A stretch of 64,000 bases of DNA from Escherichia phage PHB12. Positions 1-27,082 of this stretch are shown here, one piece after another. The notes beneath the pieces are model-generated. The model made no database searches. It was not told the origin of the DNA and was given only the letters and a program-made list of their open reading frames with translations. How positions within the stretch are numbered: position 1 is the stretch's first letter; every line of letters begins with the position of its first letter. The position numbers and the translations under genes were made by a program. Location: sequence record MK524178.1, one strand, 5' to 3'.

Positions 1-1009
1 ATGTGTCAGTGAATTCTAATACAGCTTTTGTGTAAAGCGCAACTACTTCTTTCTTAGGAGTAGAGGAATCAATTTCTACACGCACAGTATCTGGGTCGTA
101 TTCAAATGTCGCATGAGGATAATCCTTAAAAACTAACTGGATTACAGGGACACCTTTAGAGATGGCTTCAATAGAACTATTCTCTACCGTACCTGTGTTA
201 GGACACGTATTAATAAGTGCTTTAGCTGTTTTAAGACGTTCCATGATTTCACTGTGTGGAGCATCAATAATAACAGGATATTTAGCTGGTGGTGCCCATT
301 TGCTTGGACAGTATCCTACACCATTTTCGCCTAGTGCTTTAATCGCTTCAAGAGCAACATCAGTACGACGCATTTTAGTGTCATAACGTTGTGCACTAAT
401 AATCAGATCAGTCGCCGGAAGAACTTCAGGTTTCTCATTCAAACAAATAACCGGATAATCTTCGGCTTCAAACAACGGATTTGCTCGCCAATAATCATAA
501 TCAATTTTGTCAGTCAGACCTGAAGTCATATAACAATATTTGCGTTCAAATTCACGGAAGGCTTTAGTAGGAGCATAACTCTTACCACCATTCTTATGAA
601 TTTGAATAGTCTGGTCCCAAATTTGAACAATGCCACGAGATACAGGTTCAAATGGTGTTGCCATAAAATTCTTATGAACTTTAGAGAGACCTGCGTCTTT
701 AATTGCCTGAACGGTTAGTTTAGTCGGTTCCATAGTAACAACAAAATCGTATTCATGGATGCCGGCTAGTTCAACAATCTTACGAGCCATAGTATAACTC
801 ATACCTAGACTGAATTTAGTCAGATGACCAACAGGATGGTGTGTAACTTTCCAGTCACCAAACGTGTCATTATCAAAACCGATATAATCAATATCAGCAC
901 CAATAGAAACTAAATATTTCAACACATTTAAATGTACTGCTTCAAGGCCACCTTGTACACGGTCAGGATTAAATGGGACTGCACGAGATGGGATAAACAT
1001 AACTTTCAT
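1..1009 (-). CDS. GT-B fold glycosyltransferase, N-terminal ~336 aa (C-terminus lies beyond window edge); candidate DNA sugar transferase
   Basis: Minus-strand translation from ATG at 1009..1007 gives MKVMFIPSRAVPFNPDRVQGGLEAVHLNVLKYLVSIGADIDYIGFD..., open to position 1; absent from ORF track because its stop is outside the window. N-terminus resembles GT1/GT4 and T4 alpha-glucosyltransferase (hydrophobic strand, then GG-x-E). Confidence 0.5.
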   Translation of the reverse strand, partial: MKVMFIPSRAVPFNPDRVQGGLEAVHLNVLKYLVSIGADIDYIGFDNDTFGDWKVTHHPVGHLTKFSLGMSYTMARKIVELAGIHEYDFVVTMEPTKLTVQAIKDAGLSKVHKNFMATPFEPVSRGIVQIWDQTIQIHKNGGKSYAPTKAFREFERKYCYMTSGLTDKIDYDYWRANPLFEAEDYPVICLNEKPEVLPATDLIISAQRYDTKMRRTDVALEAIKALGENGVGYCPSKWAPPAKYPVIIDAPHSEIMERLKTAKALINTCPNTGTVENSSIEAISKGVPVIQLVFKDYPHATFEYDPDTVRVEIDSSTPKKEVVALYTKAVLEFTDT

Positions 1010-1034: not shown

Positions 1035-1052
1035 AAGCTCCCGAAGGAGCTT
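1035..1052 (-). terminator. hairpin terminator after gene 39 (UUCG loop)
   Basis: AAGCTCC-cgaa-GGAGCTT on plus; U-rich tract follows on minus strand. Confidence 0.5.
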
Positions 1053-2868
1053 AGGACATCCATTCTTTACGAAGTTCTGAATCATCACCCAACAACATTT
1101 CAAAGAGTTCTTTCCAATTTTCAGGAAGTTTAACTACGTCGTACACAGGGTTTTGAATCATTTCACGATATTCTGACTTTTCAAGGGAGCCCAATCCCTT
1201 GATGTATCGAATACTATGCTTAGGCAGTGTATCTTTAGCTTCTTCATACTCAGCTACAGTATAAAACCATTTTTGAGTTTTGCCAATTTGTGCAATAATT
1301 ACAGGCGTTTTAACAAAGCGAATACGTCCTTGTTCAAACAATTCAGGCCAATTACTAAAGAAAGCAAGCAAAGCCGGATAAATACTTCCAAGACCGTCAT
1401 GATCGGCATCGGTCATAATTGCAATATTACGATAGTTCGTATTCTCTGCCTTTTCACCAAGAATAAGACCTGTGATAGCACAGATATCAAAGAGCTCTTT
1501 GTTCTTCATCATATCAGCATATGACATACCCCAGCTATTCATTACCTTACCACGTAATGGGAACCCGCCGTGTAGTTCACGGTCACGAACATCAATGAGA
1601 TAACCAATTGCCGAATCACCTTCTGTTAAAAACAATGTCGTATCTGCATCTTTACCACATTGGTTAGCTTTAATATGCTTATGAACCTTAGCTTTAGTTG
1701 CCTTTTTAGCTGCTTTAGTTTCTGCAGCCTTTTCTGCTGCCAATTTACGAGCTAATGCTGCTTCAACAATAGGCATAATCAAGGCTTCGTTTTTAAGAAG
1801 TGCCTGAGCAATTTTCTTAGTATCTAATTGGATATGATTACGAATATCACCATACGTTGACGTTAAACGTTCTTTAGTCTGAGAATCAAAACGCATGTTG
1901 CTCATGTCTCTAATAAACATCAACATTGTGAGACATTCTTTAACACGAGCTTTAGTGACTTCAATACCCTTATATTTCTTTTTAATACCAGGCAAAAGAT
2001 GTTCGCAGATATCATCCATTACACATTCAACGTGATGACCGCCATTTTTAGTATGGATGTTATTCACATAAGTTAAATGTCGGAAGCCATCTGGTGATGT
2101 TGTGAATGCTATAGAGACTTTATCATTTTCTTGAATGATGTTATCTTCGCCAAATTGTTTAGCAAATCGTTTAAAATTACCATCAACCTTTTTACCATTA
2201 AATGTGAACTTGATATCAGGATAAACGACTGCCAATGTTTGAAGTCGGTCTAAAGTAATATCTAAATAAATTTGAGATAAATTATGCTCTTCAAATGAAG
2301 AGAAATCAGGAGTGAAGATTACTTTAGTGCCTTTACCTTTAGATTTCTTAGAAGACCATGATTTGTTTTCCATTCCGTTTGAACAGTTAACAGTGATTTC
2401 ATTTTCGCCATCTGACGTGATGCCTGTAAACAACGTAGAGAAGATATTAGTTAAACTACTCCCGACGCCGTTCATACCACCAGTCTTACGTTCAGAGTCA
2501 TCGCCAAAGTTACCACCAGCCTTTGGAATAGTCCAGGCTGCTACAGGCCCAGGAATTTGTTCACCTGTTTGGTCGGTAACTAAACCTTGAGGAATACCAC
2601 GCCCGTTATCTTCCACCGAAACTTGATTATTTTTAATTTGCACATCAATTTTATTTGCAAACTTAAATGATGTACGAATAGCTTCATCAACCGAGTTGTC
2701 AATAATCTCATCGATTAATTTAACCAGACCAGGAACATATTCAACTTGTTGATATTTACCAAACAAAAAACGCTCGTGGGCTTCTTTGGCCGAAGAACCA
2801 ATATACATGCCACTACGTTTCTTAATATGTTCTACATCTGACAATACCTTAATTTCATTTTTAATCAT
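1051..2868 (-). CDS. 39: DNA topoisomerase II large (ATPase) subunit, fused 39+60 form
   Basis: 605 aa; N-terminus MIKNEIKVLSDVEHIKKRSGMYIGS and GHKL motif DNGRGIP match T4 gp39; length implies the region that is separate gene 60 in T4 is fused in. Confidence 0.9.
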   Translation of the reverse strand: MIKNEIKVLSDVEHIKKRSGMYIGSSAKEAHERFLFGKYQQVEYVPGLVKLIDEIIDNSVDEAIRTSFKFANKIDVQIKNNQVSVEDNGRGIPQGLVTDQTGEQIPGPVAAWTIPKAGGNFGDDSERKTGGMNGVGSSLTNIFSTLFTGITSDGENEITVNCSNGMENKSWSSKKSKGKGTKVIFTPDFSSFEEHNLSQIYLDITLDRLQTLAVVYPDIKFTFNGKKVDGNFKRFAKQFGEDNIIQENDKVSIAFTTSPDGFRHLTYVNNIHTKNGGHHVECVMDDICEHLLPGIKKKYKGIEVTKARVKECLTMLMFIRDMSNMRFDSQTKERLTSTYGDIRNHIQLDTKKIAQALLKNEALIMPIVEAALARKLAAEKAAETKAAKKATKAKVHKHIKANQCGKDADTTLFLTEGDSAIGYLIDVRDRELHGGFPLRGKVMNSWGMSYADMMKNKELFDICAITGLILGEKAENTNYRNIAIMTDADHDGLGSIYPALLAFFSNWPELFEQGRIRFVKTPVIIAQIGKTQKWFYTVAEYEEAKDTLPKHSIRYIKGLGSLEKSEYREMIQNPVYDVVKLPENWKELFEMLLGDDSELRKEWMS

Positions 2869-18927: not shown

Positions 18928-19269
18928 TTAAAAGAATTTAAATTTTTTCTTGGTCCGTTCATTAAAAGCTTGTTGTACTTGCATTGTAACACATTTTTCA
19001 ACATGTGGTGCAAGTTCTGCTTTTCTGTCCTGGTCAAGAACTGCAAAGTCCATTACGATTTTACCATCAACCCAGTCTAGTTTTGTAATATAGACTATAT
19101 GATGAGAACCATCTTCAAGTGTAATCAGAATCTCTTGAATGACATTTTCCATTGCTGAACGGATAATTTTAAGAGATTCATTAAACACTCGTTCTTTGCG
19201 AATGTCTTCCCCTTCCGAAGAAGGGGATTCATCAACGATTTCTAGATTTAAATCATCGAGATTATTCAT
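18928..19269 (-). CDS. hypothetical protein at gene 40 position
   Basis: Between 41 and uvsX as T4 gene 40; start moved to MNNLDDL. Confidence 0.4.
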   Translation of the reverse strand: MNNLDDLNLEIVDESPSSEGEDIRKERVFNESLKIIRSAMENVIQEILITLEDGSHHIVYITKLDWVDGKIVMDFAVLDQDRKAELAPHVEKCVTMQVQQAFNERTKKKFKFF

Positions 19270-20434
19270 CGAAATCTTCCATTTCGTCAAGGTCGTTTTC
19301 TATATCTGCTGCAGACGGAGCATCAGAAGTTTTAACTGGAACTTTAGTTGTTGCTTTGCAATTAATAAGGTCGTTAACAGCGTCATCAACTTCTTTAATA
19401 GAAGAGATAGCACCTAGTTTATATTTAGTTTCAATTGCATCTCGGAAAGGTTTGTGTTTAAACAAAGGTCCCCAGAATTCTACACAATCAGTAGCTTTAG
19501 CACGCCATGATTTCTCTTCACGAATCATTTCGCCTGTTTCTTCGTCAAGGAATTCTCGAGCATACCACCCGGCTTTAGGCTTAACTACAAAACCAATTTC
19601 AGTTGCCATTTCTAACAAGCCACTGAATGGGTCAATACCACCATCAAAATTAACCGTGATCGGGAAAGTAGATTTTTCTTTAACGGTTCGAGATTTTTCT
19701 GCTTTCAACGTGAAGTCATAACCGGTCAATTCTGTGCCTTCTTTAACCTGACGTTTAGAGATAAAGAATACAGTGTTAGCAGAGTAAAGAATACCTGTAC
19801 CACCACCCATAATCTCTTTAGGATATAGACCGCCGATTTCCATTGCTGTATGGTTGATTGCAACACATGGAATATCTTTAATAGTCAGATAAGGAGTCAC
19901 AATGCGGAACAGAGATTTAAGTGCCTTAGCACGAGACATATCACCTACGACTTTCTCGTTCAATGCATCTTCGGTTTCTTTCTTAGATGCAGTATTACCA
20001 ATCGAGTCAATAAAGATAATAACTTTATCACCACGTTCAATCGCGTCAAGCTGATTAGTCATATCAACTTTAAGTTGTTCGACAGATTGAATCGGAGTAT
20101 GAACTACACGGTCTAAATCAACACCCATTGAACGAAAATAAGATTCTGAAGCACCAAATTCTGAATCATAGAACAAACAAATTGCATCTTTATATTTCTT
20201 CATATATGCTGCAACCATGGTCAGTCCAAACAACGTTTTAAAGTGTTTAGAAGGAGCAGCAAAAATAGTTAAGCCTGATTGCAACCCAGCATTCAGTGCA
20301 CCACCTAATGCAATATTCAACATCGGAATACGAGTAGGGACTTCATCGCGATTATTAAACAACTTAGACTTAGTCAAGTCTGCAGTCATTTTAGAAGTAG
20401 AAGCTTTAATCAGACGAGATTTTAAATCAGACAT
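19262..20434 (-). CDS. uvsX: UvsX recombinase (RecA/Rad51 family)
   Basis: 390 aa; MSDLKSRLIKASTSK... N-terminus and RecA core match T4 UvsX. Confidence 0.9.
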   Translation of the reverse strand: MSDLKSRLIKASTSKMTADLTKSKLFNNRDEVPTRIPMLNIALGGALNAGLQSGLTIFAAPSKHFKTLFGLTMVAAYMKKYKDAICLFYDSEFGASESYFRSMGVDLDRVVHTPIQSVEQLKVDMTNQLDAIERGDKVIIFIDSIGNTASKKETEDALNEKVVGDMSRAKALKSLFRIVTPYLTIKDIPCVAINHTAMEIGGLYPKEIMGGGTGILYSANTVFFISKRQVKEGTELTGYDFTLKAEKSRTVKEKSTFPITVNFDGGIDPFSGLLEMATEIGFVVKPKAGWYAREFLDEETGEMIREEKSWRAKATDCVEFWGPLFKHKPFRDAIETKYKLGAISSIKEVDDAVNDLINCKATTKVPVKTSDAPSAADIENDLDEMEDFDE

Positions 20435-20533
20435 TGTATTTTTCCATAGGCATCATTATATTTTACTCATGTTTAAAAGATAAGACGATTATATACTAAG
20501 GGTTATACAGCATTTAAAACTTTAAACAGGCTC

Positions 20534-21082
20534 TTAACGAGCCCATTTGATAATTTCTGTAATCAAATTATTACGTTCGCTTGCATTAAATCCTATAACT
20601 TTGTTAGCACCATCATGATTAAGTAATTGATACGTTTGGATTTTGTTATGAATTGCAAACTCTTCAAAATATGAAATGACTGTATTAAAACCAAATGAAG
20701 ACAAAGTAATAAGGTCGTCTTCAAAACTTTCAGTCATTTCGTTACGTGTTAAAATAATTGTGAACACATCATGGTTTTGGCAAAGACGAACATAATCCTG
20801 TTCATAAACGTCAAGAACCGAGTCCACATCTTGTCGAATACGTCCATAAACCCAGTTACTAATATATCCACGGTCTAACAGATAAATCTTAGTAGGGTCT
20901 AAATAATTCAACATCGTTTCGAAACAGCCAACTTCATTTCGAGACTTAACATCGAAACGTCCATCAACTGTTCGTTTAGGGAAATCAATCTTTACATATC
21001 TTTCACTAATTTCCATTATGTCATTAATGAAAGTTGTTTTACCAGCATTATCCGGGCCATCTACTAAAATAATTTTAGCCAT
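20534..21082 (-). CDS. P-loop kinase-like protein (nucleoside/nucleotide or sugar kinase fold)
   Basis: 182 aa; Walker A GPDNAGKTT at residues 9-17; DRGY lid-like motif; not a T4 gene at this position. Confidence 0.5.
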   Translation of the reverse strand: MAKIILVDGPDNAGKTTFINDIMEISERYVKIDFPKRTVDGRFDVKSRNEVGCFETMLNYLDPTKIYLLDRGYISNWVYGRIRQDVDSVLDVYEQDYVRLCQNHDVFTIILTRNEMTESFEDDLITLSSFGFNTVISYFEEFAIHNKIQTYQLLNHDGANKVIGFNASERNNLITEIIKWAR

Positions 21083-21083
21083 T

Positions 21084-21983
21084 TTATTCCTCGATTATGA
21101 CATCTTCGTATTTAGGTATATTATACGGTGAAGAAATTAAAGCATTAAAGTAGATGAACTCACCAAGACCTGGATGGAATACTTCTTCAGGATTTTCGAA
21201 ATATTGAATCTTCGGCCGTCCTTTAAGAATTTGATAGTACTCAGTTTTAGTTGGTTTAAAAATTCGAATCAGTGCTTCTTCAGGATACTTATTTCTGTCG
21301 AAGCTATTATTTGGATCGGTTATATAAAGCGGTTGACCTAATTGAATTGCACATTCAACCACTTGTTCAAAACGATAACACGGGTCACTAATTCGAAATG
21401 GATGAAAAATACCATCTAGATGAATAGGAGCCAAATCACCTACAAGACGCTGCATGATGGAAGGACGTATAACTTTCTGCGTTACGATAATCTTATTACC
21501 ATCTGCACCTGCGTTAACCAGCACTTCTTTTTGACGTTCATTCAACACAGTAGTTTGAAGTGAACGATTAACAGACAACATGTCGGTTTTTAAGAATTCG
21601 TCAATATAAAAACGTGGTTTATTAGAGTCTGCAGTAATATTGAAATTGAATTCTACGTCAAAAGTGCCGTCATATCCAGTGATATCTGTGATTAGAAAAT
21701 CACAATCATAATAATCAATTAATGAATCAACCACAAATTCATTTTCAGACCAGAAATATTTACGAGTGTTATATGCGTTATCTTTATACCATAATGGAAC
21801 AAACTTAAATTCTGGGAAAAGACGTTCACATTCTTTAATATCAGATGCATTACGTGGATATGTAATTACATCACCCGGATTAGCACGGTGCAAATGAAGT
21901 TGGAAGTTGCCATCCTTAAGGATAGCATACTGTCCAGTTTCATAAGACCGCATACTCAAGATAGGTACGCGGAAAATAGCCAT
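21084..21983 (-). CDS. hypothetical protein at the beta-glucosyltransferase position
   Basis: 299 aa; no resemblance by eye to T4 Bgt; tightly packed between P-loop gene and gene 42 homologue. Confidence 0.5.
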   Translation of the reverse strand: MAIFRVPILSMRSYETGQYAILKDGNFQLHLHRANPGDVITYPRNASDIKECERLFPEFKFVPLWYKDNAYNTRKYFWSENEFVVDSLIDYYDCDFLITDITGYDGTFDVEFNFNITADSNKPRFYIDEFLKTDMLSVNRSLQTTVLNERQKEVLVNAGADGNKIIVTQKVIRPSIMQRLVGDLAPIHLDGIFHPFRISDPCYRFEQVVECAIQLGQPLYITDPNNSFDRNKYPEEALIRIFKPTKTEYYQILKGRPKIQYFENPEEVFHPGLGEFIYFNALISSPYNIPKYEDVIIEE

Positions 21984-22699
21984 TAGTCAAGGAATCCTTT
22001 AACATAATCAAAATCACGTTCAAACACATGGGCACTTACCATGGTATGAGTATAATCACCAACTTCTACACCACATTCGTTAGCGATATAATGAAGTAAT
22101 TTTCCTTGGAGATAAAAATCCAACTGCATAACAACAGCACAGTTCTGAGAACGCATATGACAGTGGGTATAAAGCTTACCATCACGAATATAATAAGTCA
22201 CTGAGTCAGTACATGGATATTCAAGTGTTTCATCCGAATCAAGCAAAGCCTGATCTGAACTTTCAAGAATTTGAAACACAACTCTTCGTGAATTAGGTTT
22301 CTCTTTAAGTTCTTTTAGAAGAGTTGGTAACTGGGCCGCAATGCGAGGACCATAGAAAGTGTTGAAGTTCGCAGGCAAAGCATCTGATTTTGGTTTAGAA
22401 ATAAATTTAGCGACGTTAGGATATGCCTTAAATGCTTCTTCTGCATCAGTACCACCAGAAATCATAAATTTCCAGAAATCTTCAGCATATTCATAAGAGA
22501 TGCGATTAATACGTGGGTCGGTCATTTTGAATGATGAAGGGGTATCAACAACTACTGTCATAGACCCAATTTCATTACAACGTCCAATACGAGAGTCAGT
22601 AACGAACTGTGGATTTTCTAAAATTTCACGATTGACAGCTTTAAATGCGGATTGAAAATCTGCGGCTTTAATATATTTCATTGTGTTATGTTTTCCCAT
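21983..22699 (-). CDS. 42: thymidylate-synthase-fold pyrimidine C5 hydroxymethylase (gene 42-like, divergent)
   Basis: 238 aa; catalytic-Cys block YPCTDSVTYYIRDGK...HMRSQN parallels T4 gp42 FMCTNTVQYLIRD...NMRSND. Confidence 0.6.
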   Translation of the reverse strand: MGKHNTMKYIKAADFQSAFKAVNREILENPQFVTDSRIGRCNEIGSMTVVVDTPSSFKMTDPRINRISYEYAEDFWKFMISGGTDAEEAFKAYPNVAKFISKPKSDALPANFNTFYGPRIAAQLPTLLKELKEKPNSRRVVFQILESSDQALLDSDETLEYPCTDSVTYYIRDGKLYTHCHMRSQNCAVVMQLDFYLQGKLLHYIANECGVEVGDYTHTMVSAHVFERDFDYVKGFLD

Positions 22700-22978
22700 G
22701 TTTACCTCAATACAGTTATTATATACTCAATTCATAAAAGCTTATTTGAATTTCTTAGCGATGTTGATATAACGTAAAGCTTCAGCATCGATACTTCCAA
22801 GAACACTATGAAGAAATGCATCAGCGTAGTATTCTAGTTGAACAGGTTTCTTTAATCACTTTAGCCGCTTTAGTTTCAAACAGGCCCATAAGGGCCTTTT
22901 TAAGAATTTGTTCGTTGCTGTTAATTTTCATAGTCAAAATCTCTTCATTAAGTTGGTGGTTAAAAGTTTTTCTAGAAA

Positions 22979-24139
22979 TCATTCCGGGTACCTCAAAGCG
23001 TCATCAGAGTTAGTTATATCAATAATAGATATAGAGTTTTCTGCTAACCCATTTTTAGATAACTGACGTTTATAATATCTTTCACAATATGTACACGTCG
23101 TCCCGCAGATTTCATTAGCACAATCGAAATCTGGATGTCTGAACCACCTTTTTTCTAAAAAGCCATCTAACAAAGAGGTTTCAATATTTACTGTATGTGA
23201 AAACTCGGTTTCGTTTTCAAGAGTGAAAATAGTCTCTAAAGGCTTCCACAATTCCAACAAATTACCTTCAAATTTTTCAGAAGCATAAGCTTCAAGAACT
23301 TTCAAAATGTAGTCTGTGCTACCTGTACGTCCTGAAACTTTGAATTGAGTGATACCAATATCATTATAAAGTTTCAAATCTTGAGGACGAACAAAACGAG
23401 TTCTCAACCAGTTAAATGGGTCTGTATCACGAGCTTTAATACAGTGTTGCATTGGATATCCATTTAAGGATTTGGCATCATCTACTGTAACGTCGGTGCT
23501 ATGGAAAATATAGCAAGAGTCACGATAGCTACAATGTGTTGTATACCCTTTACCAGCATTAGAACAGAACTCATTTACAAGAACTTCAAATATTATATTG
23601 TTCTTATTACAAAACTCTGCTGCGCGTTTCAGGAAAGAAACTGAACGGTTCTTATGAATTCCACAGCAGACCTTTTTGATATTATATTGGTCATGCAAAT
23701 ATTTGATTTGAGTTACAGCATCAACATGTAGAATTGTTGAAACTTCAATCTCAATGTCTTTATTGACTTCACGAACAATTTCCATAACAACAGGGTTAGC
23801 GATAGTAATACGCCATACGCCTATTGACCAAAGATACTGAACATAATCCTGAATAGCTTTCTTCTTCCACTCAACTAGTTCTCTTTTTGAACCAGGATTT
23901 ATCGTGTTGAGTGTATAGTTAAAGCAAATACCTAATTCGTTACAACGTTTAACATAATCTTCTAACATCTTTTTGTCAACGTCAGGAAGCCTAAAATCAG
24001 GTCTGGCTGCTACAAAAGCCATTTCTCTTGTAGAGCCGTATACTTCGTTTATCAAGCTATTAGGATAAGTTTTATTGAGCTCTACGATTTTATCAAGAAG
24101 AGCTAAATCAAAATTCGTTCCGATTTTAAAGGTATTCAT
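22979..24139 (-). CDS. cysteine-cluster enzyme-like protein, unknown function
   Basis: 386 aa, 14 Cys including C-terminal CANEICGTTCTYC (C-x3-C-x3-C-x2-C); possible Fe-S or Zn site. Confidence 0.5.
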   Translation of the reverse strand: MNTFKIGTNFDLALLDKIVELNKTYPNSLINEVYGSTREMAFVAARPDFRLPDVDKKMLEDYVKRCNELGICFNYTLNTINPGSKRELVEWKKKAIQDYVQYLWSIGVWRITIANPVVMEIVREVNKDIEIEVSTILHVDAVTQIKYLHDQYNIKKVCCGIHKNRSVSFLKRAAEFCNKNNIIFEVLVNEFCSNAGKGYTTHCSYRDSCYIFHSTDVTVDDAKSLNGYPMQHCIKARDTDPFNWLRTRFVRPQDLKLYNDIGITQFKVSGRTGSTDYILKVLEAYASEKFEGNLLELWKPLETIFTLENETEFSHTVNIETSLLDGFLEKRWFRHPDFDCANEICGTTCTYCERYYKRQLSKNGLAENSISIIDITNSDDALRYPE

Positions 24140-24193
24140 TTTTGCATCTCGCGTTAATTGTTGCGATGGTTTTTGCAGGTCTTACTTAAATTA

Positions 24194-24595
24194 TTATAGA
24201 TTCGGTTTATATGATTTAAATGTTTCGAATTCGCCTTTATTCATAAGAGCTTTGAATTCGTCAGGACGCATAGCTTTGTCGTCGATAATCCAATCATATA
24301 CTGGTTTATGTGTTAGCAAATTATGGTACTTCAATCCAATGTTTGCCAAGTTCTGAATCAGACTTGGGAGAATGTCAATTGCTATACGACCAGGACCGAC
24401 TGACTTCATACCGCGAGCAGTGTAAAGAGTTATTGTATGCCCTGCATCATACAGGGCATTAATGGCAGACACCATTTCGACGTCTGGTTTGAAGTTCACG
24501 TAATCACGATTGTTATTCCACTCTGTTATACAATCATCGACATCAAAACAAAGATTAAGCATGTTTTCTACACGGTGCATTAGATTCGTTCCCAT
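24194..24595 (-). CDS. HAD-superfamily phosphatase-like protein
   Basis: 133 aa; motif I FDVDDCIT and motif II TLYTARG. Confidence 0.5.
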   Translation of the reverse strand: MGTNLMHRVENMLNLCFDVDDCITEWNNNRDYVNFKPDVEMVSAINALYDAGHTITLYTARGMKSVGPGRIAIDILPSLIQNLANIGLKYHNLLTHKPVYDWIIDDKAMRPDEFKALMNKGEFETFKSYKPNL

Positions 24596-26265
24596 TGATG
24601 AGTGATATCGCCACCGATTGGACGATAGGAAACACCAGTTTCTTTATCAGTTAGTACCCATTTACCAGGATTTTTTGTAATCAGAGTAGCCGTTACAGGT
24701 TCTGCTACGTCATAACTAATAGAGCCGTCTTGAAGTACACGGCCCATGTTACGTAATTGCTTAGTCAGAAGTTCCATACCTTTATAATATGCGGCTACCG
24801 CTTTAAGTGGATTATTCTTGAAATAACCACCTAATGCAATCCAGATAATTGCTACAGCCAAATGATGATATTCATTAAACGAACTCATCTTTCCATATTT
24901 GTAAACTAATGGATTGATGTTAATAGTCACATTACAAGTTGTTTCATCAATAGTAAACTGTCCCCAGGTCGGATTAGCGTTGAATTCATCATAACCTGAA
25001 ACAGCATAAAGCACTTTAGCTTCATCGTACAATTTTGGCCCATAAATCTTGGTTTCGCCAAAATATCCACGAGGGTCGATAAACTTAACTTCGCCGTTAT
25101 CAGTAATCATAGTATTACTGAAGTTCGGGTCACCATGAATAACAGAGTACTGTCCCTGAGAACGATTATGATAACGAATAAGGTGTTCTAAAGCTTGTTT
25201 CAGCATTGGCTTCAGACGTCCAATCTTAGTGTAGTTCACATGTGTGATTTTACCAAATGAATCAATCAATGGTTGAATGCTTTCACAACGATCAATAACT
25301 TTCGTATAGAATTCTTTAGTGAAATCACGACGAACAGTTTCAGGACTTACAAAATAAGTGTCTGTGCTGAATTTCAGTGCATCTAAAATTGCATCAACAA
25401 TTTGTGGACGAGCAAGACTCGATTTGGATTTAATATATTCAAATGCCGGCTTACCTTTAATGCGTTCCATTTCAAAGTTATTTTCATTAACAGAAACTAA
25501 CTGAGGAACTGAATCTGATTTCACTTTAAGATACCATGAAATCTCATCTTTCTGAAGAGCTCGGCCCTGTTCGGTTAATGCGAATTTAGTTACAGTTTCT
25601 TCACCAATTTCAACTGCATTAAAACTACGATTAAGTTCACGAACTTCATGAGCTTTTTCAAGTTTAGGCATATCACCTAAATCAATTAGATTCATAAGCT
25701 CTGATTTATTGAATGCGCTGCCGTAAAGGAATTCTACGAAATCACGTCCTTTGCAGTATTCATGAATTTCCTCATCAGTAGAACCCATATAGAATTCCCA
25801 GTCTTTGAACTGATAAATTCCTACAACATTACCACCTGTTGAACCTACGTTAGTGATATTTTCACCGTCGAAATTATATCGACATTCGTCACCCTTAACA
25901 TAGATTGCGTTAACATTCCAAGACCATGAGCCAAAATCAGGAATAATATCACACCAGTTAACAATTACATTATGGCCGTCTAAATCTTTGTGTAATTTAG
26001 CAAGAGCATAAGCAGAACCATACGCTTCATCAACTGTACGAATAGTCACATTGAACCCTTCTTGCTCACAATAAGCTCGAACAGTTTCAGCAAATTTTGA
26101 ATGAACTACTACAATAATTTCATCTGCGCCAAGGTCAGAATAAATTGTATACAAATTGCTCAGAATAGTGTCTTGTTTATAGTTAACAAGCACCTTAGGA
26201 ATATGATGCGTTATTGGATACAAACGAGTTGCCAGTCCAGCACCAAGAATAACAGCTTTTTTCAT
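24580..26265 (-). CDS. bifunctional sugar-1-phosphate nucleotidyltransferase / APH-like sugar kinase
   Basis: 561 aa; N-terminal ILGAGLATRL (NTP-transferase G-x-G-x-R) and C-terminal HGDPNFSNTM...IDPRG (kinase catalytic/DFG-like). Confidence 0.65.
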   Translation of the reverse strand: MKKAVILGAGLATRLYPITHHIPKVLVNYKQDTILSNLYTIYSDLGADEIIVVVHSKFAETVRAYCEQEGFNVTIRTVDEAYGSAYALAKLHKDLDGHNVIVNWCDIIPDFGSWSWNVNAIYVKGDECRYNFDGENITNVGSTGGNVVGIYQFKDWEFYMGSTDEEIHEYCKGRDFVEFLYGSAFNKSELMNLIDLGDMPKLEKAHEVRELNRSFNAVEIGEETVTKFALTEQGRALQKDEISWYLKVKSDSVPQLVSVNENNFEMERIKGKPAFEYIKSKSSLARPQIVDAILDALKFSTDTYFVSPETVRRDFTKEFYTKVIDRCESIQPLIDSFGKITHVNYTKIGRLKPMLKQALEHLIRYHNRSQGQYSVIHGDPNFSNTMITDNGEVKFIDPRGYFGETKIYGPKLYDEAKVLYAVSGYDEFNANPTWGQFTIDETTCNVTININPLVYKYGKMSSFNEYHHLAVAIIWIALGGYFKNNPLKAVAAYYKGMELLTKQLRNMGRVLQDGSISYDVAEPVTATLITKNPGKWVLTDKETGVSYRPIGGDITHQWERI

Positions 26266-26306
26266 GTTGTGGTCCTCATTGGTAAGTAGGAGTATTGTAC
26301 ACTATT

Positions 26307-26450
26307 CTAGTTAAAGCATTCATACTTTGCTTGTAGTCCAATCATAATCCATCCGATTATAAGAGTCGGAATCATTACTGGAGCCGTTAAGCTCCAGTAG
26401 ATAGTCATGACAAGCATCAATAGTAAAAGTCCTATTGTTATTGCTTTCAT
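26307..26450 (-). CDS. small hydrophobic ORF coupled to isomerase gene
   Basis: 47 aa MKAITIGLLLLMLVMTIYW...; ATG overlaps stop of 26447..27082 (ATGA). Confidence 0.3.
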   Translation of the reverse strand: MKAITIGLLLLMLVMTIYWSLTAPVMIPTLIIGWIMIGLQAKYECFN

Positions 26451-27082
26451 TGTTCGCCTCGTAACATGGCACCTAGTGCACCGCCAGGGTGGAACTTAAG
26501 GAAGTCATTAGAGGTAAATCCACGTTCAGACGAAAGGTTGATAGCAAACGTATCGATAAGCGCTAACAACAATGTAGTGGACATGGTCGGAGCCAGAGAA
26601 TTCTCATCGACCTCTACTGCGATGCCTGTACAGAACGTATAATCAAAAAGAGCTTCGTATTCTTGTGGAATGTCTGGGTTACAATGCAACAGAATCTGTT
26701 TGACGTTCGGACGAATCATTTTAAGATGCTTAGCCACGCCTATCATTTCTTCAGTTTTACCGGAACGACTAATATGAATCAACACATCATTAGGCGCAAT
26801 GAATCCTGCATCACCGTGAGAATAATGCCCAGTGTTCAAGTACATACTCGGGATACCGAGTGAAGCAAATGTCTCAGAAGCTTTAGTTGCAATATTAGCA
26901 TTCTTACCAACACCTGTAATAATTACTCGGCTTTCATAATTACTAAGTCCAGGGCGTCGAAGAGTTTCTAGAATAGCATTATAACGAGCAGGGTTTTGAC
27001 TAATTACTTTGGCCATAGCGGCCAAAGAAGAAGCTTGTTTTATGATTGCGTCAATAGCGATAGTAATAGGAGTAGTTTTCAT
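26447..27082 (-). CDS. SIS-domain sugar-phosphate isomerase (KdsD/GutQ/GmhA-like)
   Basis: 211 aa; VIITGVGKNANIATKASETFASLGIPS and SRSGKTEE resemble SIS phosphosugar-binding motifs. Confidence 0.65.
   Translation of the reverse strand: MKTTPITIAIDAIIKQASSLAAMAKVISQNPARYNAILETLRRPGLSNYESRVIITGVGKNANIATKASETFASLGIPSMYLNTGHYSHGDAGFIAPNDVLIHISRSGKTEEMIGVAKHLKMIRPNVKQILLHCNPDIPQEYEALFDYTFCTGIAVEVDENSLAPTMSTTLLLALIDTFAINLSSERGFTSNDFLKFHPGGALGAMLRGEQ

Follow-up and report, generated by a model that had tools for sequence, protein, structure and literature searches.

A thymidylate kinase-like protein and a GT-B glycosyltransferase encoded next to uvsX in Escherichia phage PHB12 are predicted members of the RB69-type arabinosyl-5-hydroxycytosine cluster

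Arabinose is present in the DNA of phage RB69, and the gene module discussed here was implicated in this modification by Thomas et al. in 2018. According to Lee et al. (NAR 2026, PMC13326640), the modified base of RB69 is arabinofuranosyl-5-hydroxycytosine and not arabinosyl-hmC. Arabinosyl-5-hydroxy-dC in phage DNA was shown for RB69, NP and others, and no bare 5-hydroxycytosine (5hoC) has been reported in virions. The same study demonstrated experimentally that RB69 gp48 is a flavin-associated 5-hydroxy-dCMP (5hodCMP) synthase and that gp159, a gp1-type kinase, turns 5hodCMP into 5hodCDP. RB69 gp45 and gp46:47, with the equivalents gp78/gp79 in DLP3 and gp214/gp215 in RL38J1, are labelled there as 'nucleotide kinase' and 'arabinosyltransferase 1'. 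Single transferases, DLP3 gp79 included, did not arabinosylate 5hoC-DNA, and by the authors' own account first arabinosylation at the nucleotide and at the DNA level could not be told apart. We found no enzymatic activity reported for gp45, gp46:47 or their orthologs in the literature examined, the published functions being computational predictions. Also from PMC13326640 we take the roles of a HAD phosphatase (AfhF analog) and of a 561-aa protein (AfhE analog). For the nucleotidyltransferase domain of the latter type UDP-arabinose pyrophosphorylase activity was assigned in HY126, and the sugar kinase of the pathway is the C-terminal domain of AfhE.

We analysed a stretch of 64,000 nucleotides of Escherichia phage PHB12 (MK524178.1), referred to as the window. 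Positions 19000-27000 align end to end, at 97.6-98.4% identity, with the 30 Escherichia and Shigella phage records that match best, among them F2, HY126, JS09 and SSE1, and the window derives from an RB69-like (Mosigvirus-type) phage of the T4 family. The original prediction had given correct coordinates for the two ORFs in question: 20534..21082, coding for 182 aa, and 21084..21983, coding for 299 aa. Both are read from the minus strand. The relevant features are:

1..1009, minus strand: putative second arabinosyltransferase (RB69 ORF003c / gp3 homolog), N-terminal 336 codons
17476..18918, minus strand: gp41
19262..20434, minus strand: uvsX
20534..21082, minus strand: 182-aa TMK-fold (d)NMP kinase, RB69 gp45 ortholog
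21084..21983, minus strand: 299-aa compact GT-B (GT4-like) glycosyltransferase, corresponding to intact RB69 ORF047c+ORF046c (gp46:47, 'arabinosyltransferase 1')
21983..22699, minus strand: 238-aa ThyA homolog, flavin-dependent 5-hydroxy-dCMP synthase (RB69 gp48), first cistron of the cassette
22979..24139, minus strand: predicted 386-aa Peptidase_U32-family protein (RB69 gp50); Pfam PF01136 6.3e-11, PHROG 5757
24194..24595, minus strand: 133-aa HAD phosphatase (RB69 gp51, AfhF analog); TIGR01689 capsule biosynthesis phosphatase 4e-13, PHROG 1238
24580..26265, minus strand: 561-aa bifunctional sugar-1-P nucleotidylyltransferase and APH-like kinase (RB69 gp52:53, AfhE analog)
26447..27082, minus strand: 211-aa arabinose-5-phosphate isomerase (RB69 gp55); TIGR00393 KpsF 2e-32, KdsD 1e-30

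On the minus strand the order is gp41, gp40, uvsX, 182-aa ORF, 299-aa ORF, ThyA homolog, U32 protein, HAD phosphatase, 561-aa nucleotidyltransferase/kinase, arabinose-5-phosphate isomerase and DNA polymerase. At the corresponding place T4 has the order 42, b-gt, segA, uvsX, and the window has ThyA homolog (21983..22699), 299-aa gene, 182-aa gene, uvsX (19262..20434). The 299-aa gene therefore lies in the b-gt slot, as was originally stated, and directly downstream of the gene-42-type synthase position, as Bgt does in T4. Synthase and 299-aa gene overlap at 21983 (TAATG), and one base separates 21084 from 21082 at the following junction (TAA-A-ATG), with GAGGA just upstream; all three genes form a single compact unit. 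In a scan for promoters and terminators the signal was not above shuffled background, and the resemblance of a 'GCTTTTA...TATATAAT' stretch ahead of the synthase to T4 middle/early promoters is a by-eye impression only. Among 50,697 phage records we detected full-length homologs of the kinase in 343 and of the 299-aa protein in 348, with matching genus distribution, and the two alignments of homologs contain 31 and 37 invariant residues; hence both ORFs are real genes and not chance frames.

The 238-aa synthase matches PDB entries 9iqc/9ir2 with E 2.2e-162 (9iqc, 9ir2 and 9iqu all at 2e-162 or better) and carries the D169N (+N177D) signature of 5hodCMP synthases, RSQNCAVVMQLD, as defined in PMC13326640. 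An hmC pathway, which the original prediction had assumed, does not agree with this match and with the activity of gp48: the synthase is a 5-hydroxylase and no hmC is made. Genes for the supply of UDP-arabinofuranose are encoded in the window as well, namely the arabinose-5-phosphate isomerase, the HAD phosphatase and the bifunctional kinase/nucleotidyltransferase (561 aa; Pfam NTP_transferase 8.5e-10, weak kinase-family matches and NCBIfam matches). The frame at 1..1009, truncated by the window start, is open without stops, begins with 'MKVMFIPSRAV...' and adjoins a 605-aa ORF (1051..2868), as RB69p003 adjoins gene 39 in RB69; from the stop-free frame and the shared neighbourhood we predict an ORF003c homolog. 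Because of the synthase match, the D169N/N177D signature and the work of Lee et al., the finding stands, but the identity of the genes is already accounted for. By their sequences, the two ORFs appear to be members of the RB69-type arabinosyl-5-hydroxycytosine cluster, which was described between 2018 and 2026 with both genes listed in it, so that gene identification alone adds nothing.

The 182-aa protein shows 98% amino acid identity to RB69p045. Its Walker A motif GPDNAGKTT (residues 9-17) had been recognised correctly, and the DRGY motif is indeed present (residues 70-73), but not as the lid-like element proposed. It sits at the end of strand 3, the site of the DR(Y/H) motif in thymidylate kinases (TMKs), and represents the DR motif of these enzymes; D70-R71 are invariant in 24 kinase homologs together with G9, D11, N12, G14, K15, T16, S75, N76, Y79 and R113. 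The AlphaFold model (pLDDT 88.5; mean 66 for residues 121-130) shows a TMK fold with P-loop and DR(Y/H) motif, and TMKs are its closest folds, in agreement with the original assignment as a kinase. In the lid region the single invariant arginine, R113, is followed by acidic D122-D123. In the P-loop, N12 replaces the class-I arginine in the window's subgroup, and distant members read 'EG(L/F/I)DR.GK'. Databases annotate the protein as 'thymidylate kinase'; curated TMK cut-offs were not reached (PF02223 12.3 bits vs 27, TIGR00041 16.8 vs 83.25), and a PDB sequence search returned only P-loop matches, to RecA and TMKs. An hhalign comparison of the kinase profile with E. coli Tmk spans just a 25-residue P-loop segment, and since the alignment covers the P-loop only, an attempt to match F54, L58 and Y79 by eye with the residues that bind the base in TMKs was not relied on.

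The 299-aa gene corresponds to RB69 ORF047c and ORF046c in intact form, with BFVD matches to both ORFs (Q7Y591, Q7Y592). In the RB69 record one extra T at position 545 splits the gene, as already remarked by Lee et al. (PMC13326640), whereas the window copy is unsplit. The model (pLDDT 95.3, pTM 0.90) consists of two Rossmann-like domains with an inter-domain cleft. This GT-B, GT4-like fold supports the transferase suggested at the outset, though not as a "second" one. Sequence comparison reaches less far: neither the protein nor its 55 homologs (56 members in all) matched a family in Pfam or NCBIfam, GT families included, and PDB sequence searches with the protein or its profile gave nothing significant (one chance match, E 0.46). 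The hhalign probability was 0.1% against T4 beta-GT, in accordance with the earlier impression that the protein does not resemble Bgt, 0.2% against alpha-GT and 0.3% against RB69 gp3. With the transferase profile 228 cluster representatives were found among 1.84 billion, and the large GT4 superfamily was not reached. All 56 members share R197, K246 and H270-P-G; at position 275, 47 have E and nine have D. R197, K246 and position 275 are likened to GT4 donor-binding residues by their place in the secondary structure of the model and not by residue-level superposition. The protein is acidic (pI 5.06, net charge -11; family median 5.1) compared with T4 beta-GT (pI 9.05), but pI is a weak test of DNA binding, as T4 alpha-GT is likewise acidic (6.11).

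To place the pair in a wider context, neighbours were scored with HMMs in 58 viral loci and metagenome contigs encoding relatives of the 299-aa protein. The kinase family is found on the same strand in 55 of 57 transferase loci (exceptions L051 and L052), and about 43 of these 55 kinase genes abut or overlap the transferase gene, the commonest order being synthase, transferase, kinase. About 15 metagenomic loci comprise the trio of ThyA homolog, transferase and kinase with arabinose-activation genes absent within 5 kb, and in some of these, as well as in the related contigs L002 and L003, a Flavodoxin_2 gene lies beside the synthase. That the kinase is kept in such loci argues for a role in the nucleotide and not in the pentose branch. 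Moreover, six cluster representatives (P0257, P0258, P0259, P0240, P0269, P0281) are single-polypeptide fusions of 519-574 aa, with the transferase domain N-terminal and the P-loop kinase domain C-terminal. This kinase domain and its free-standing neighbours align to the window's kinase family over 129 columns by hhalign, with a probability of 92% and E 6.7e-7. In the iterated kinase HMM search the E-values of the third round are circular for included sequences, and the second round and the independent hhalign comparison were used. Fusions of HAD and transferase domains exist too (P0165, P0176, P0248, P0227, L052). The co-occurrence in 55 of 57 loci, the transferase-kinase fusions and the retention of the kinase without arabinose-activation genes are new here.

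We consider it highly probable that one of the two proteins is a kinase for modified (5-substituted) dCMP and the other the arabinofuranosyltransferase that adds the first, base-proximal sugar of the pathway in alpha linkage. Orthology, folds, conserved motifs, synteny and the published activity of gp48 are in hand for this assignment, and we infer the substrate of the kinase, the donor and acceptor of the transferase and the order of the steps. To the explanation as a whole, with synthase, GT-B transferase and TMK-fold kinase as the conserved core of phage glycosyl-5-hydroxycytosine hypermodification and acting here in the RB69-type pathway according to the published working model, we would give an even chance. 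Against the assignment of the two proteins count the negative DLP3 gp79 assay, the report of pyrophosphorylase activity for TH1_063 (see below) and the curated family thresholds, which neither protein reaches.

In the proposed pathway, the cassette would make mono- and di-arabinofuranosyl-5-hydroxycytosine, replacing every cytosine in the phage DNA. The gp48-type synthase would convert dCMP to 5-hydroxy-dCMP, and a phage dNMP kinase, the TMK-like enzyme and/or the gp1-type kinase, would provide the diphosphate. Host NDP kinase would form the triphosphate, and the polymerase would then insert the modified nucleotide. The neighbouring upstream genes, for the isomerase and the AfhE-like and AfhF-like proteins, would supply UDP-Araf, from which the 299-aa enzyme would transfer the first, alpha-linked D-arabinofuranose onto the 5-hydroxyl group, and the ORF003c-type transferase may add the second arabinose on DNA. 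Given these roles, the published working model, in which the transferase acts on DNA after replication, carries about half of our confidence. Its order of kinase, polymerase and transferase on DNA fits all precedent for phage DNA glycosylation, every characterised case of which is, to our knowledge, post-replicative. A second 5hodCMP kinase looks redundant here because gp159 of RB69 already converts 5hodCMP to 5hodCDP; the published model accounts for the extra kinase by a self-sufficient mobile module.

A different order of steps is nearly as plausible, though we rate it somewhat below an even chance. The 299-aa transferase would add the sugar to free 5-hydroxy-dCMP, the TMK-like kinase would be dedicated to arabinosyl-5-hydroxy-dCMP, the polymerase would insert glycosylated dCTP, and only further sugars would be added on DNA. 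This reading stays viable owing to the co-occurrence, the fusions and the kinase kept without arabinose-activation genes. The six fusions can be read as Rosetta-stone links, although the HAD-transferase fusions indicate that a fusion shows a shared pathway and need not join consecutive steps. The sequence of synthase, transferase and kinase, in genes and in domains, fits glycosylation before replication, and so does a gene for a YfbR-like 5'-deoxynucleotidase between transferase and kinase in L058. The kinase is retained in 55 of 57 loci even though the T4-like phages among them own a gp1-type kinase that handles 5hodCMP; a mobile module with its own 5hodCMP kinase would explain this equally well. 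The inactivity of single transferases on 5hoC-DNA in vitro also favours this order, and Lee et al. (PMC13326640) cannot discriminate between the two levels. The acidity of the transferase family points in the same direction, an argument weakened by the mildly acidic T4 alpha-GT. Against sugar addition before replication stands the post-replicative precedent; furthermore, competition from the gp1-type kinase for 5hodCMP should let some bare 5hoC slip into DNA, yet virions are not reported to contain any.

Other identities of the two enzymes have far less in their favour. For the phage Thanatos of Shewanella, purified TH1_063 (300 aa) was reported to form UDP-xylose from UTP and xylose-1-P and showed no transfer to DNA, dCMP or dCTP (PMC12838424), and the 299-aa protein might by analogy be a sugar-activating NDP-pentose pyrophosphorylase instead of a transferase. 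We regard this as very improbable: its fold is GT-B and not that of a nucleotidyltransferase, the cluster has its own nucleotidyltransferase domain in the 561-aa protein, the transferase family occurs in modules without sugar-activation genes, and the Thanatos acceptors lacked a 5-hydroxyl group, so that the negative transfer result says little. That the 182-aa protein phosphorylates a pentose or other sugar for the sugar branch, or hm-dCMP in an hmC pathway, as considered in the original prediction, seems scarcely credible. In enterobacterial relatives, the identity of the kinase (~70% vs ~38%) parallels that of the AfhE-like protein (~70% vs ~43%) and the HAD phosphatase and not that of ThyA, transferase, U32 or UvsX, and the second class of relatives has the gene order AfhE-HAD-kinase; however, this pattern is accounted for by exchange of a contiguous AfhE-HAD-kinase block. 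Fold and motifs (P-loop, DR motif, S..VY) are TMK-like, the sugar kinase role is already filled by the C-terminal domain of AfhE, the metagenomic trios do without arabinose genes, and a hydroxylase as synthase leaves no hmC to be phosphorylated. Equally remote is an ordinary auxiliary dTMP kinase that raises the dTTP supply and is merely physically linked to the modification genes: in spite of the database name and the TMK folds, the protein lies far under both curated cut-offs, aligns with E. coli Tmk in the P-loop segment only and occurs essentially only beside the 299-aa-type transferase, fusions included, and T4-type phages are already equipped with the gp1-type dNMP kinase, which in T4 covers dTMP.

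The 386-aa U32 protein also has homologs next to those of transferase and kinase where a ThyA homolog is not seen: several distant modules (L050, L053, L056, L067) encode kinase, transferase and U32 protein, and the 4-7 kb flank on each side contains no ThyA homolog. Known Peptidase_U32 members include RlhA, which the K-12 record annotates as the synthase of 5-hydroxycytidine C2501 in 23S rRNA (PMC5727448), TrhP, which makes ho5U in tRNA (PMC6599085), and UbiU/UbiV of anaerobic ubiquinone synthesis, for which prephenate was reported as oxygen donor (PMC10990095). Lee et al. (PMC13326640) labelled RB69 gp50 a "sugar or heterocycle reductase". Similarity of the U32 protein to E. coli RlhA was marginal in pairwise BLAST, and there was no PDB sequence match. 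Because of the modules without ThyA homolog, a role as oxygen-independent C5 hydroxylase is worth testing. As a lead, the U32 protein may be a candidate cytosine-5 hydroxylase that backs up the O2- and flavin-dependent synthase in the anoxic gut.

These results sharpen the question to why a second kinase is kept, joined or fused to the first transferase, despite a gp1-type dNMP kinase, and whether the first sugar is placed on DNA or on the nucleotide. 5-Hydroxycytosine is a mutagenic lesion that is excised by host repair glycosylases. If the sugar goes on the nucleotide, the DNA would never hold the bare base, and the polymerase must accept glycosylated dNTPs. We know of no earlier nucleotide-level pathway of DNA glycosylation, so that this one, if true, would be the first, with relevance for the biology of phage counter-defence and for the enzymatic synthesis of glycosylated DNA. 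The compact trio of ThyA homolog, transferase and kinase might in addition help to trace new phages with glycosyl-5-hydroxycytosine in metagenomic data.

The closest known system is RB69 itself, where gp45 and gp46:47 are orthologs of the pair (98% amino acid and 99% nucleotide identity, a single indel). Neighbours, their order and the results of fold searches are the same, and the split transferase gene is essentially the only difference. With thymidylate kinases (vaccinia 2v54, T. thermophilus 5x7j) the 182-aa protein shares the overall fold, the P-loop G-x-D-x-x-G-K-T and the D-R motif after strand 3 that is followed by an S..(A/V)Y helix; it differs from them in its low identity of only 8-19%, its shorter length (182 aa), the apparent lack of an Arg-rich lid and its linkage to the 299-aa-type transferase. 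The latter has in common with retaining GT4 enzymes (sucrose-phosphate synthase 6kih, BshA 6n1x, PimA 2gej) the GT-B fold of two Rossmann domains. Its C-terminal domain holds an Arg (R197) and a Lys (K246), both invariant, which may correspond to those of GT4 enzymes, and an H-P-G...E/D275 segment that may stand for the EX7E motif; its N-terminal domain is shortened and bears a family-specific S-M-R-S-Y loop. Compared with Bgt and alpha-GT of T4, it is smaller (299 vs 351 or 400 aa) and more acidic, with no detectable sequence similarity. Its predicted acceptor is the hydroxyl directly on C5 of 5-hydroxycytosine and its predicted donor UDP-arabinofuranose, in contrast to the hydroxymethyl group and UDP-glucose used by the T4 glucosyltransferases.

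Fused relatives of the 299-aa GT-B transferase are seen among the cluster representatives of the transferase profile search. In P0257, P0258, P0259, P0240, P0269 and P0281 (519-574 aa), an N-terminal transferase domain and a C-terminal P-loop kinase domain lie on one chain, and in P0165, P0176, P0248, P0227 and the product of L052 4452-6107 (471-566 aa) a KdsC-like HAD phosphatase domain is joined N-terminally to the transferase domain. The genomic context of P0281 is as follows:

L067 7278-9002, transferase-kinase fusion P0281, after which come genes for a SIS isomerase, an NTP-transferase, a HAD-like protein and a U32 protein

In RB69 itself the transferase gene is annotated in two parts. 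It was compared with window 21084-21983:

L068 3598-4498 (NC_004928 24597-25497), RB69 transferase gene

The reference record carries one extra T at gene position 545 (GTAGTGTGA in RB69 versus GTAGGTGA in the window), and because of this single nucleotide the split into ORF047c and ORF046c is artificial.

The enterobacterial relatives fall into a first class (L005, L009-L011) and a second class (L006-L008, L012-L016, L021), the latter with the gene order AfhE-HAD-kinase-(U32)-ThyA-transferase. Divergence of UvsX, ThyA, transferase and, where present, U32 is about equal in both. Kinase identity stands at ~70% in the first class versus ~38% in the second, the AfhE-like nucleotidyltransferase/kinase at ~70% versus ~43%, and the HAD phosphatase varies together with these two. 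The difference looks like the exchange of one contiguous block comprising the genes for the AfhE-like protein, HAD phosphatase and kinase.

Further genes accompany the transferase in single loci or in the window:

L058 5909-6460, YfbR-like HD-domain 5'-deoxynucleotidase (Pfam 7e-20), between the transferase and kinase homologs
L051 5248-6201, gene after the transferase, start MLVVIHGAGPAGCTAARLLAEKGH
Window 1-1009, minus strand, open frame of 336 codons ('MKVMFIPSRAV...') adjoining the 605-aa ORF at 1051..2868

L051 is one of two loci without a kinase. The gene that follows its transferase opens with what resembles, by eye, a dinucleotide-binding (FAD/NAD) motif; the product may be similar to UDP-galactopyranose mutase, an enzyme type described for RL38J1. 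The frame at window 1-1009 is read as the N-terminal portion of the second arabinosyltransferase, homologous to RB69 ORF003c (366 aa) and truncated where the window begins.

Near 5hodCMP-synthase (ThyA) homologs, flavin-reductase-like genes were detected:

L002 1-523, Flavodoxin_2 (NAD(P)H-dependent FMN reductase-like) gene close to the synthase, with SIS and APH genes near the synthase-transferase-kinase trio
L003 6739-7293, the same type, immediately upstream of the synthase in a trio-only locus

L031 3240-3746 and L036 3790-4293 are probably of this type, a likeness seen by eye only. Such a neighbour fits a flavin-dependent hydroxylase requiring reduced flavin.

A second candidate for hydroxylation belongs to the Peptidase_U32 family; it is listed with a small neighbouring ORF:

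Window 22979-24139, minus strand, U32 protein, 386 aa, RB69 gp50 homolog
Window 22821-22982, minus strand, 53-aa ORF between the U32 and synthase genes
L050 5954-7051, L053 5783-6865, L056 5885-6973 and L067 12301-13401, U32 genes in other loci

The small ORF overlaps the U32 gene start with its end; phage F2 has a short hypothetical CDS annotated at this place, and RB69p049 occupies the equivalent place in RB69. In some distant modules with kinase, transferase and U32, namely L050, L053, L056 and L067, no ThyA homolog was found in the 4-7 kb flanks, and U32 is therefore a possible alternative cytosine-5 hydroxylase. RB69 gp50 is labelled in print as 'sugar or heterocycle reductase' (PMC13326640). 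Among the characterised U32 proteins are the hydroxylases RlhA, the 23S rRNA 5-hydroxycytidine synthase (PMC5727448), TrhP, which makes ho5U (PMC6599085), and UbiU/V (PMC10990095); the alternative hydroxylation by the 386-aa protein could be anaerobic.
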